From the NCBI RefSeq assembly GCF_006345805.1, contig NW_021833027.1, positions 1 to 64,000 of the forward strand: DNA of 64,000 nucleotides, written 5' to 3'. Each line of letters begins with the position of its first letter. Position 1 is the stretch's first letter. Of the stretch, positions 12,564-39,609 are shown piece after piece. The position numbers were made by a program, and so were the translations under genes. Under the pieces are notes generated by a model. The model worked only from the letters and a program-made list of their open reading frames with translations, searched no databases and had not been told where the DNA came from. The stretch is from Octopus sinensis. Lineage: Eukaryota.

Positions 12564-12707
12564 TTAAGGTGGTGTCGAGGGAGGCGGTTCATCTCTCGGT
12601 TCCTCATCTTCGCTGGAAGTCTGCTGGTGAAACAAGATCCTCAATAAGTCTTGGATTCGGTTAGCACCAGGAAATGAGAAAGCCAGACCACTTTGTTGTC
12701 CATGTTG
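12564..12707 (-). CDS. Terminal coding exon of the same BH3-only gene (QHGQQSGLAFSFPGANRIQDLLRILFHQQTSSEDEEPRDEPPPSTPP*)
   Basis: Pyrimidine tract plus acceptor ataattttttcag| at 12708. Phase 0 matches the donor of the 39395-39609 exon. 47 codons then TAA at 12564-12566. It is a GC-richer, non-repetitive island among simple repeats. Confidence 0.72.
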   Translation of the reverse strand, partial: QHGQQSGLAFSFPGANRIQDLLRILFHQQTSSEDEEPRDEPPPSTPP

Positions 12708-12869
12708 CTGAAAAAATTATGAGATAAAGAGAGAAAAAGACAGGATTAGATTAGAGTATTAGATTATCATATTTTAACTGTAAATACAAAAATAAACACA
12801 CACACACACACACACACACACACACACACACACACACAGATATATATATATACATAATCCTCATCATTG

Positions 12870-13052
12870 TCATTTAATACCCATGTTGTAGACTGGATGG
12901 TTTGACAAGAGTTAGCAATTTCCAGGGCTGCATGAAGCTCCAATGATATCTGAGGCATAGCTTCTCTGATAAGAAGCCCTTCCAAACATCAACCAATCTA
13001 CAGTGTGTGCTGAATGCTTTTCTCAGAGCACCAACACCAGTGAGGTAACCAA
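12870..13052 (-). mobile_element. Degenerate family-D (RTE-tail) SINE
   Basis: Follows a catcat tail and resembles the copy at 25548-25736. Confidence 0.5.
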
Positions 13053-13335
13053 GAATATACATACATATATATTTCATAAACGTGGAGTAGACGAAATAGG
13101 AAGAACTGAAAAAGGGGAATATTCCTTGTGTTGTATGTCTTGTACTCTGTTCTTTGTTGTTTGAAAAATAGTTCGTTTCCATGTTTTTGTTTTTATGTTT
13201 ACATTTTTCGTTGTGTTCTACGTTTTTTTGATGTCCTATACCCATATATGCATGTATATATACACATAGATGTAGGTATGTACATATATGTATGTATATA
13301 TGCATATATTTATATATTATTTTTATTATATTATT

Positions 13336-13756
13336 AGGCGCAGGAGTGGCTGTGTGGTAAGTAGCTAGCTAACCAACCACATGGTTCCAGGTTCAGTCCC
13401 ACAGCGTGGCATCTTGGGCAAGTGTCTTCTGCTATCCCCCGGGCTGACCAATGCCTTGTGAGTGGATTGGTAGACGGAAACTGAAAGAAGCCTGTCGTAT
13501 ATATGTATATATATTATATATATGTGGTGTGTATGTGTTTGTGTGTTTTGTCGGGTTGTCCCTTCTAGCATTGCTTGACAACCGATGCTGGTGTGTGCTT
13601 ACGTCCCCGTCACTTAGCGGTTCGGCAAAAAGAGACCGATAGAATAAGTACTGGGCTTACAAAGAATAAGTCCCGGGGTCGATTTGCTCGACTAAAGGCG
13701 GTGCTCCAGCATGGCCACAGTCAAATGACTGAAACAAGTAAAAGAGAGTAAAGAGT
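13336..13756 (+). mobile_element. Full-length tRNA-derived SINE, family A
   Basis: Head aggcgcaggagtggctgtgtggtaag (A-box) and ggttcagtccc (B-box-like), body cttgggcaagtgtctt, internal (TA/TG)n, tail gtgctccagcatggccacagtcaaatgactgaaacaagtaaaagag. Many copies elsewhere in the window. Confidence 0.88.
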
Positions 13757-14099
13757 ATATGATCAAACACCACGCATCCTTTTCCAAGTAAGCTTTTACC
13801 TATATATGTGTGTATATATATATATATATATATATATATATATACATTGCAATGTTGATCATATCTGAGACCATGCTGTTGCCAATGGATTAAGTCAACC
13901 ACCCATGAGTTTAAAAAAAGGTAATAGAGTGAGTTGGAGGGTTTCATGGGTTTTTTTTTTTTTTGGAGGGGGGCTTAAATTTTCAACTTTAAAACAATTT
14001 TTTTTTTAATTTTCTATGTCAAGCGTAGCAGTAATTTTCTTAATTTTCATGCAAATTGCACCAGTCATTTTTTGTGTCACAAAATCCAAAGATGTATAG

Positions 14100-36454: not shown

Positions 36455-36930
36455 TCATCGTCATCGTTTAACGTCCTCTTTCCATGCTGGCATGGGTCTG
36501 GGTCGGACGGTTTGACTGGGAACTGTACAACCAAAGTCTTCTCTCTTGCATACAACATCTAACTCTCTTCTTGCATCCAATTTTCCTCTCACCTCATTAA
36601 ACTTTTTATCATCCATGCTCACTAACGTTACACATTGAGTGCTACACGCTTGCTTCATTTCTTCCCATCTTTCACGCCACTGCATTCCTCGCATTAAGTG
36701 CTCGTATTTTACTACCATGCAACAGAGCACTTCACAACACTTAAATCACACGCTCCACTCTTCACTCACACTCGGTAGAAGTAATATCACTCTGACCTTT
36801 TTTTTCGGCTCACTCATACTCAGGCTCGCTATGCTTTCGGAACAGCTTCGTTTGCTTCTGTTTTGGTCACCAAGGTAACAGAAGCCAGCAAACTATGTCT
36901 ATTGAGCAACTAAGCATTTGGAAAAAAGTT
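36455..36930 (-). mobile_element. Degenerate RTE-clade LINE 3' remnant
   Basis: Frameshifted minus-strand sequence has an FCYLGDQ motif and a ...LLHGSKI...NEASV... C-terminal-like segment. It ends in the ggacgttaaacgatgac(gat)n tail. Confidence 0.6.
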
Positions 36931-37135
36931 CCTTTTATGGATTGGGCTACTACAGCTAGTTTAATCAATCATATGCATTTGGTGCAAACTAAGTCATTCT
37001 TAGAGTCAACCTGCCTGTGAACCTGCAGCAAGAGGGGGGAGGAGAAGAAAGAGAAAAGAAATTGAGAGAGAGTGGGAGAGAGAGCAAAAGCAGTGCTGTG
37101 TAAGAGATGGTACTATATATATATATATATATATA

Positions 37136-37365
37136 CTTTATTTAAAGCAGCAGAAAATTCAACAAAACCTGTTACTCTGAGTTTCCCGTTGCCGTTCGGC
37201 GGACAGTTTTTTCTAGCAAAAACTGTCCGACGAACAGCAACGGGAAACTCAGAGTAACAGGTTTTGTCGAATTTTCTGCTGCTTTAAATAAAGCATATTA
37301 CTCTACCACTGGTATTGAGTACCCTTTTTTCCACCTTGTTTCACATTTATGTGTTTACTCCGGTA
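37136..37365. mobile_element. Palindromic (fold-back) element, Penelope-like inverted-end structure
   Basis: 37136-37211 and 37218-37293 are near-perfect inverted arms around a ~6-nt spacer. The right arm continues ~70 nt. The element sits in (TA)n. Confidence 0.75.
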
Positions 37366-39394
37366 TATATATATATATATATATATAAAGGGAGAGACAA
37401 TAGGGGGAGGGATTGGAAAGGAAACAGGAGTTTAGTGCTCCAGCATGGCCACAGTCAAATGACTGAAACAAGTAAAAGAGCAAAGAGCAAGAGCATATAT
37501 ATATATCTCATCATCATCATCATCGTTTAACGTCTATGGAAAACGGACGTTAAATGATGATGATGATGATATATATATATAAACACATACATATATATAT
37601 ATATATATATATATACAGAGAGAGAGAGAGAGAGAGAGACAAAGAGAGGGAGAGAAAGAGAGATAATAGTGATGTGATGTAGAGAGAAAGCATCTTTTGT
37701 ACTTTAATCACTTCAAATTGTTATGTTTCTGTGACTAGCTTCCTATCCCGGTAGAGTATTATCTATTTCATCTGTTTAACATCCATGTGTCTACTAATTC
37801 TGTGTACCTAAACACTGACCTTCTGTGACCCTAAATAAAGTATAGAACAGCCCCCTTTAACGAAAGCCTGTAATTTAAGGCTACGGCAGAAACCCCTTCA
37901 TATACTAGTGTGTGTTAACTGTGTAGACTTTTGTTTGTTTTTGTTTTTTGGGGTTTTTTTGCTTCTTATTTGGTTTCTTCTGTTTATTTGCAGTTTATGC
38001 AAATTCTCATTGAAGTGATCTGTGAACCATTTAAAGGAGTCGGGGTGGGGGTTATGTGATGTAGGAGCAAACTTATAAACTAATGGCTAGTAAAAAGAGT
38101 CTGAAACAATGTTTTTAGTTAATTTATTTTGAATTTAATTTATTTTCAGATAAAATTTATATTTTTAAAAAAATAGAAAAGAAAAAATAACAGAAAGTTT
38201 GAATTAATATCACGCATTTTCCAAAAGGAAAGTTAAGAAAAATGTTTTTGAAACTGTTTAGAGTTCCATTTTTTCCTTCTTCTTCAGACAAATAGTTTCT
38301 TGAGAAACTATTTAATCTTGTTTTGTTCGTTAGAATGTTTCATTGAATCATGAATAAGAGCATTTTCCAATTGATTCCATGTTTTTCCTAAGGCAAGAAG
38401 GTAAAAGTTGTAGAGCTCTGGAGATCATATTAGATATAAACTCATAGAGATGTTCTGAATTCCAAAATGTTGTTATGGTTGAAGAATTAGAACACCAGTA
38501 GGTGTGGTAAGTATATATGCATTTGACAGAGGGATCAAAGGTCGAAAAGTTGACCTCACCCTTGACATGTTCAATTTGTAGAGTTGATCACCCACTAAAG
38601 CATTCAATAGGTTGGCTTTGTGCAATAGGAATGCTTCAATGGAGCTGGCTGGCATTACCAAAAATAGCAGCAGGAATGATTACTCCATCATGTTATTTTT
38701 CTTTAAACGCCAATGGAACAGAATCACAACTGAAGTTATGGAATCACATTAATCAAGGACTGATTTTCTCAGCCTTCAGAAGTTTCCAAAGGACAGGATT
38801 ATGCCACAGCATACACGGTGCCGCTCTCAGTAAACAGAGACTATCACTGCTACTATTCCGTATGAAATAGGTAGCAAAGTCTTTCTTGTCTGGGACCGCC
38901 TTTAGAAAGTCAATGAACGCACAACTGTAAGGCATACAGTTGGAAACTGACACAAAGAATCCCATGGCAATTCCACGTGACATACGATAGTGGGTCTTAG
39001 CCAGAATTTCTTCAATTCTTTGTACGCAAGTTTCATTAACATCCTTGAGAAGGATTTCACCAAAGCAAAACTGTAATGGACTTTCAGGATTGGAGCCAAT
39101 TTCTAGCATTCAAATATTATATTTGAAAGACTTCTGGCCATTTGGTATTTCCTTATTCTTCACCGATATTATCTAGTATATTTAGTTTTAACTTTGATTT
39201 CACTCCTTTTTTTCTTTAATTCCCTTTAATTTCCATTCCGTTCTACGTTTAGAAAAAAGGTATCACAGGTAGTAAATTAGCTGGCACTAATTGTTATTTC
39301 CAATTGACAAAATCAGAGTGAAATTAGCTGTAAGTCTGCAGGTGAGACTAAAATTGACCAAGTTTGCAGTGACATGCATATTCCATCTACTTAC

Positions 39395-39609
39395 TTGGTG
39401 GTGTGAATGGTGGCGATTCTGGTAATACTCGTCACTAATTCTCCGAAGTTCCTGTCCAATCGCACGGATGTGTTCATGCCGACGAAGAGGCACTTCAGGT
39501 AATGAGTGCGCTCTGTCCCGTGGTACTGGCACCAAATCTGGCAGTGGATCTTGCCGTGGTGAAACGCTAGAATCTTCTCCTTCGGAGTATAACCGACGCG
39601 ACACACTAC
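39395..39609 (-). CDS. Internal coding exon of a BAD-like BH3-only protein (SVSRRLYSEGEDSSVSPRQDPLPDLVPVPRDRAHSLPEVPLRRHEHIRAIGQELRRISDEYYQNRHHSHHQ)
   Basis: Minus-strand acceptor ttttcttttcaattacag|GT at 39610 and donor CAA|gtaagt at 39394. The exon is 215 nt (2 nt + 71 codons), open and non-repetitive. It contains the BH3 core L-R-R-I-S-D-E and an upstream RxRxxSxP motif, as in vertebrate BAD (YGRELRRMSDEF; RGRSRSAP). Confidence 0.85.

Follow-up and report, generated by a model that had tools for sequence, protein, structure and literature searches.

What kind of gene lies on the minus strand between positions 12564 and 39609 of a 64,000-nucleotide stretch of Octopus sinensis DNA (contig NW_021833027.1; hereafter the window), and how does its product relate to BIM and BAD, two proteins of the BH3-only class? 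The original prediction, made from the letters of the window, was a hidden, two-exon, BAD-like BH3-only gene. Our analysis leads to a broader answer: this is a three-coding-exon gene of a family reaching from lophotrochozoans to lamprey, and we consider it fairly probable that its product is a BH3-only trigger of cell death, disordered over much of its length, that combines the controls of BIM with those of BAD. Positions below are window coordinates, the gene is read on the minus strand throughout, and residues are numbered from the first full codon of the middle exon.

The exons and the 26.7-kb splice that joins them are real. The middle, second-to-last coding exon (39395..39609, 215 nucleotides) is entered in phase 1 through a pyrimidine tract and an AG acceptor at 39610, is left in phase 0 at a GTAAGT donor, and holds both a BAD-like block and the BH3. 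The distal last coding exon (12564..12707) begins at an AG acceptor and encodes 47 amino acids followed by a TAA stop at its end. Between them lies a GT-AG intron of 26,687 nucleotides (12708..39394), and the phase 0 join of 39395 to 12707 keeps the reading frame open. Contigs from 4 of 24 sequencing runs were compared with positions 38100-39800; in contigs of X1 and X3 (two of the four runs, from two studies) the loose end past 39395 equals 12678-12707 letter for letter. Because the join falls at GT-AG boundaries and each exon has a single genomic copy, we take these contigs to come from a spliced transcript. The original prediction was therefore right about both exons, their canonical sites and their in-phase union, and the 39395/12707 junction that it suggested looking for is present in the contigs of two studies. 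It fell short in stopping at two exons. A first coding exon of 1459 nucleotides (486 codons plus one base, with a GT donor) lies on another contig, at G000:C1442:12707-11249(-), beyond an upstream intron whose part within the window is 39610..64000, and it is joined to the 39609 exon in contigs of X1, X3 and X16 (three of the four runs). The assembly divides the gene between contigs C9498 (96,866 nucleotides) and C1442 (16,935 nucleotides), and RNA-type joins connect the two. With the distal exon, the three coding exons yield a full protein of about 605 amino acids; the same distal last exon is encoded in Argonauta, in a gene model, and in one further relative. With one genomic match per exon the gene is a single-copy candidate in octopus, and this together with the canonical splice sites rules out a retrocopy. 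A candidate paralog on C1515 (a second match with an E of 0.04 and 4 stops) has neither a BH3 nor an RxRxxSxP motif and is repeat noise.

Judging from the sequence and from a structural model, the octopus protein is very likely a BH3-only protein. Its BH3, I50-G51-x2-L54-x2-I57-S58-D59-x-Y61 (39425..39460), has a complete consensus, with the hydrophobic positions h1-h4, the small residues and the invariant Leu and Asp all present, and the earlier numbering of L54 and D59 is correct; S58 stands in an RRxS kinase context. As for the Bcl-2 fold and other BH motifs, PF00452 does not appear in the full-length orthologs at E≤10. The splice-junction contigs also agree with a further property of BH3-only proteins given in PMC7022251. 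Ahead of the BH3, the middle exon carries three further motifs: RRLYS (39584..39598), which occupies the position of the first RxRxxS of BAD, has lost the −5 Arg in octopus and may be a kinase site; the family-conserved LPDL (39533..39544); and RDRAHSLP (39497..39520), an RxRxxSxP motif with its Ser 19 residues ahead of the BH3 Leu, a predicted phosphorylation site of Akt/RSK type and 14-3-3 dock on the model of BAD outlined in excerpts of PMC6193418. The upstream exon on C1442 supplies the start Met, DSSYAT, PIPI and TIGTQT (C1442:11346-11363), so that a TQT motif of the kind bound by dynein light chain stands upstream of the BH3 in the octopus protein. A second TQT-like word, GIQT, occurs 15 residues after the first. 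D and Q each account for 13% of the residues of this exon, S for 10% and hydrophobic residues for 21%. In octopods the first exon (486 amino acids) is swollen by runs of Q, H, D and N; whole bivalve proteins have about 330 amino acids. The distal exon does end in the acidic, Pro-rich tail described earlier, but it additionally encodes a conserved SFPG motif (12666-12677) and a predicted amphipathic helix (12630-12659) with a moment of 0.69.

The octopus genome holds seven Bcl-2-family loci (L007-L013). In L007 and L008 a single exon carries the greater part of the Bcl-2 domain, and NWGR motifs are present. Residues 36-68 of the middle exon are predicted to dock onto P0187, a Bcl-2-like exon product of this genome, with a score of 0.74 versus 0.04 for the best of three controls; at least 96% of the contacts recur between runs, the predicted local distance difference test score of the partner is at least 70, and the NWGR Arg102 of P0187 is modelled against Asp59. 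In a calibration made without peptides, 51 of 78 solved pairs attained the docking mark, as did 2 of 108 mismatched ones.

Members of the family to which this gene belongs keep the same motifs in the same order. The 71-amino-acid translation of the middle exon shares 100% identity with its O. bimaculoides counterpart and 84% with that of Argonauta, and as a query it retrieved these two, an unnamed protein and Lingula; Lingula as a query retrieved bivalves, abalone and one nemertean. A 13-row profile matched 157 representatives at E≤0.001. Among the 150 of these that are listed, 24 clusters were looked up by name; they come from molluscs, a brachiopod, Owenia, Capitella, a bryozoan, a starfish, crinoids, Ptychodera, amphioxus and Lampetra, and BIM and BAD from vertebrates close the match list. 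No arthropod, nematode, flatworm or cnidarian is found among these 24 clusters, which are a minority of the matches. A further homolog search, the third, used an alignment of 38 rows and gave only 8 proteins from 8000 scored candidates, which is not evidence of absence. The shared order runs DSGY, PI[AP]IP, TQT, basic-Ser site, LPD, RxRxxSxP, ELRRISDE, SFP, helix. We counted these motifs with loose patterns in 38 near-full-length invertebrate members chosen by eye for completeness and spread: a degron-like site (KRDSGY in the family, DSSYAT in octopods) is found in 31, TQT in 29, LPD in 31, the pre-BH3 RxRxxS in 37 and LRRxS in 32, with TQT and RxRxxS together in 28 and the degron-like site joining both in 25. 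The second, upstream RxRxxS is a full motif in many relatives. An RxRxxS lies 14-21 residues ahead of the BH3 Leu in 123 of 142 BH3-bearing rows, which are not independent of one another, versus 0.8% of shuffles. Homology searching of the kind proposed at the outset returns a family with a conserved BH3 frame in molluscs and beyond. Several lesser features accompany the family: LPD[LIV] is invariant in alignment A2, PI[AP]IP recurs from octopus to lamprey, and RF[HQ]PY is found in many bivalve members. The clam Mya arenaria has two diverged members (P0075, P0111) on contigs of equal length, which suggests local duplication, and several such diverged copies have no TQT or LPD.

This family bridges two vertebrate proteins that barely align with one another. 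In profile-profile comparisons it matches BIM at 98.2% over 106 columns and BAD at 97.6% over 73 columns spanning the whole BH3 exon, whereas BAD and BIM match each other at only 71.1% over 43 columns. The solved structures nearest to the family profile are BH3 peptides of BIM and BAD. At E≤1, Bclx_interact is matched by 13 of 13 profile rows and Bcl-2_BAD by 11 of 13, and in the larger set of 38 by 27 and 29, respectively. The resemblance to BIM extends to gene layout: a degron-like Ser cluster and then TQT lie on an upstream exon, the BH3 on the second-to-last exon, and the last exons vary, as described for BIM in sections of PMC4695108. It also extends past the LC8 core, where the family's TQTP-SP-xCQ matches BIM. 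Unlike BIM, which has Gly before the BH3 Asp, the family has Ser, and the pre-BH3 RxRxxS is mostly missing from BIM (it is present in duck, absent from five other BIM rows); the octopus protein, moreover, exceeds BIM threefold in length and has diverged in the flank of its TQT. The likeness to BAD lies in the two basic-Ser sites followed by a BH3 with an internal RRxS Ser, in the same order and with similar spacing, and, after the BH3, in a short S-x-P/G motif with a Trp- or Leu-rich helix. The earlier BH3-only reading is borne out by the BH3 consensus, these nearest solved peptides, the family conservation and the docking model. The label BAD-like, however, tells only half of it: the upstream exon and the BH3 itself are at least as BIM-like.

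Could the gene simply be the invertebrate ortholog of BIM, with BAD having gained its similar sites, which are short motifs, independently? We regard this as rather unlikely, although several observations favour it. The BIM match is the longer of the two; a profile of the 14 residues past TQT, with TQT itself removed, finds the right place in 5 of 5 BIM proteins at 13.9-23 bits; RxRxxS is a common motif; and the BH3-free pre-BH3 parts of six relatives and the octopus exon give 0 of 7 Pfam matches, BAD included. Speaking for a genuine BAD component instead, the BAD match covers the entire BH3 exon, the Ser within the BH3 of BAD recurs as the LRRxS of most family members, and the starfish FRDRSNSAP closely resembles the FRGRSRSAP of BAD. 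The distance from the RxRxxS Ser to the BH3 Leu is exactly 15 in 3 of 3 BAD proteins, amphioxus, the hemichordate Ptychodera, a crinoid and lamprey, and also in duck BIM; it is 19 in octopus. Two lamprey proteins (P0139 and P0161; Lampetra LOC144933487 and LOC144719853) carry a BIM-type BH3 and TQT together with a BAD-type RxRxxS at this spacing of 15. Bird BIM from duck and partridge (P0153, P0181, P0182) has RWRSHS with its Ser 15 residues ahead of the BH3 Leu, which may be a relic or chance. From its sequence, we judge that the gene is probably not BAD itself but co-orthologous to both BIM and BAD.

A number of points weigh against the composite BIM/BAD interpretation as a whole, the Pfam failure of the pre-BH3 parts among them. 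The vertebrate rows were retrieved by the same profiles that score them, which biases those scores upward, and several rows are near-copies. A tree of 27 core stretches (64 columns) is supported at only 4 of 24 branches. The octopus exon reaches 17.6 bits against a cut-off of 25 for the BIM BH3 model PF08945, and octopus proteins have no match to the BAD model PF10514; as it falls below both Pfam cut-offs and the tree does not settle orthology, we file the gene neither as BAD nor as BIM. Octopods have DSSY in place of DSGY, no −5 Arg at the first basic-Ser site and no Pro after TQT (TQTY), and from these drifted motifs some of the controls may have been lost in this lineage. The docking pass may reflect memory of solved BIM and BAD complexes, a BH3 in a Bcl-2-like groove being a textbook pair, and the nature of the four sequencing runs as RNA is only a guess. 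Finally, molluscs reportedly have neither Apaf-1 nor caspase-9, according to portions of PMC11463336 and bioRxiv 2021.12.21.473695, so that the steps after the mitochondrion would differ from those of mammals.

The large low-complexity expansion of the octopus protein (about 605 residues versus about 330 in bivalves), its altered degron and first basic-Ser site, the conserved LPD motif and the recovery of the gene from many apparently routine samples are what one would expect if the BH3 had been kept while the role in octopus became mainly non-lethal, serving 14-3-3, LC8 and Bcl-2 proteins as a scaffold or as a hub of signalling. We find this improbable, given that no BH3 contact position has been lost and that the exon is so well conserved in O. 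bimaculoides and Argonauta.

Orthology with BAD, as the title of the original prediction implied, with TQT as a convergent LC8 site, strikes us as quite improbable. The middle exon does resemble the BH3 region of BAD from end to end, and a BH3-free pre-BH3 profile scores about 12 bits on three gecko BAD rows (0 of 300 shuffles); one mammalian-type BAD reaches 4.9 bits (2 of 300 shuffles) and one other BAD 2.8 bits (16 of 300), lamprey 24 bits and duck BIM about 4.4 (0-1 of 300), with the other five BIM rows at chance level. In contrast, an invertebrate TQT-block profile with the BH3 removed picks out BIM in 7 of 7 cases, with scores of 18-28 bits (for each, 0 of 300 shuffles), and BAD in 0 of 5, and the likeness to BIM continues past the LC8 core. 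Lingula (26 bits) and amphioxus (27.4 bits) pass the BIM BH3 cut-off in Pfam, as does lamprey (26.2 bits), and fail that of BAD (18.1 and 21.8 bits, respectively, against 28.2 for PF10514). BAD further differs in having no DSGY, LPD is extra in the family, and the octopus spacing departs from that of BAD. A profile of the post-BH3 tail gave a clear score in only 1 of 5 BAD rows and in 0 of 7 BIM rows. The BAD link is thus weaker than the BIM link and rests on short motifs with conserved order and spacing. BMF is like the family in having a dynein-light-chain site, according to part of PMC6193418; BMF and PUMA show weak Pfam matches only (2 of 38 and 4 of 38, respectively), and neither was recognised among the 150 listed profile matches, of which a minority were looked up by name.

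That the protein is a transcription factor, as the RefSeq name of the O. bimaculoides ortholog ('transcription factor mef2A-like') would have it, we give virtually no chance: no MADS or other DNA-binding family is found at E≤10, the other named invertebrate relatives are called 'uncharacterized', 'hypothetical', 'unnamed' or are labelled with a BH3 domain, and the name likely stems from the Q/H/D runs. The expectation that the gene would be unannotated or uncharacterised is therefore only half right; RefSeq models exist for O. bimaculoides, but they are misnamed and omit the distal exon.

Returning to a composite BH3-only protein, its control can be pictured by analogy with mammals. According to sections of PMC6193418 and PMC4695108, dynein light chain tethers mammalian BIM and beta-TrCP is the route of its degradation, whereas BAD is kept silent through a pair of RXRXXS 14-3-3 sites together with a PKA Ser in its BH3. 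The octopus protein would be largely disordered, with a BH3 helix predicted to insert into Bcl-2-like grooves. As with BIM, TQT would tether it to dynein light chain and, in most relatives, the DSGY site would direct its phosphorylation-dependent degradation. As with BAD, survival kinases would phosphorylate RxRxxS, to which 14-3-3 would bind, and phosphorylation of the Ser within the BH3 would then block contact with the groove. Once survival signalling was lost, the freed protein would neutralise Bcl-2-like proteins and so allow membrane permeabilisation of the Bax/Bak type; Bax, Bak and cytochrome c release have reportedly been described in molluscs (parts of PMC11463336; bioRxiv 2021.12.21.473695). 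By this analogy, we infer that the octopus protein integrates both BIM-type and BAD-type inputs.

Alternative 3' ends could add a further layer by changing a membrane-targeting tail. In all four runs contigs continue across the 39395 donor, and one X16 contig is spliced upstream and unspliced at this donor; such transcripts read through into the intron and encode a 35-amino-acid tail (39287..39394) that matches O. bimaculoides isoform X1. Long contigs end at 38214-38337 in three runs, and two AATAAA hexamers (38144 and 38128; 38123..38144) likely mark the 3' end of these proximal transcripts. A short alternative last exon of 15 amino acids with an AG acceptor (38340..38387) matches isoform X2 of O. 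bimaculoides; none of the four runs shows it joined, and contigs drop rare forms. The two current O. bimaculoides models examined have proximal ends only. The distal exon is nevertheless likely the ancestral last exon, as it contains the family SFPG motif and the predicted amphipathic helix. Simple and dispersed repeats are abundant in the large intron; the introns are filled by dispersed ones, for which as many as 13 self-matches overlap (for example 13337-13757, 20753-21143, 24946-25360, 31736-33636 and 44902-45106), and a short tandem array lies near 14300-14700. An Rfam scan of the window gave 0 matches; 189 complex ORFs are listed as well, and the introns may hold a further gene.

How much of this is new? 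We found no description of composite BIM/BAD motifs or of a shared BIM/BAD ancestor in the literature covered, outside which lie two BH3-evolution reviews of Aouacheria; that group has reportedly discussed a gene structure shared among vertebrate BH3-only genes, so the idea may be partly published already. The mere existence of the octopus gene has probably been flagged already. The legend to Figure 5 of Suraweera et al. 2022 (PMC8998228), whose figure or supplements may name it, lists O. bimaculoides among candidate invertebrate BH3-only proteins together with Lingula, Capitella, Crassostrea, Lottia, amphioxus and echinoderms; the seeds were Bim, Bad and Bmf of human. Judged from that legend, these candidates are probably the same family as the octopus gene; unlike here, the alignment covers the BH3 region only, regulatory motifs go unmentioned in that part of the paper, and experimental proof is called for. 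Elsewhere, the same paper reports that lamprey (Petromyzon) and hagfish apparently have no BH3-only proteins, although we find the Lampetra BH3 proteins P0139 and P0161. Portions of other articles call BH3-only proteins polyphyletic (PMC11463336), say that they have only the BH3 in common (PMC6193418) and describe those of molluscs as yet to be identified (PMC8917759); the excerpts of PMC7022251, PMC8282340 and PMC13303787 contain nothing on the family of the octopus gene. On balance we believe that the new part is the composite architecture and the case it makes for a shared ancestor of BIM and BAD.

With similar reserve, we lean towards a history in which the bilaterian ancestor had one BH3-only gene with a degron, an LC8 tether, two 14-3-3 sites and a Ser in the BH3. 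Molluscs, annelids, brachiopods, echinoderms, hemichordates and amphioxus would still have it as a single composite protein, while BIM and BAD of vertebrates, perhaps along with BMF and PUMA, would be its duplicates, each with part of the controls; the BIM-like proteins of lamprey and duck would retain the BAD-type site at BAD spacing. If this is true, the main BH3-only proteins are one gene family rather than unrelated proteins with only the BH3 in common. The family makes the origin of BIM and BAD testable through synteny and motif mutants; among vertebrate loci, BIM (BCL2L11) and BMF reportedly lie next to BUB1 and BUB1B, and the single amphioxus locus is LOC118417579. For molluscs, the family is the likely missing upstream trigger of mitochondrial apoptosis, for which oyster, scallop, abalone and octopus each have a single named locus, and the octopus gene is a single-copy candidate for studies of programmed death.

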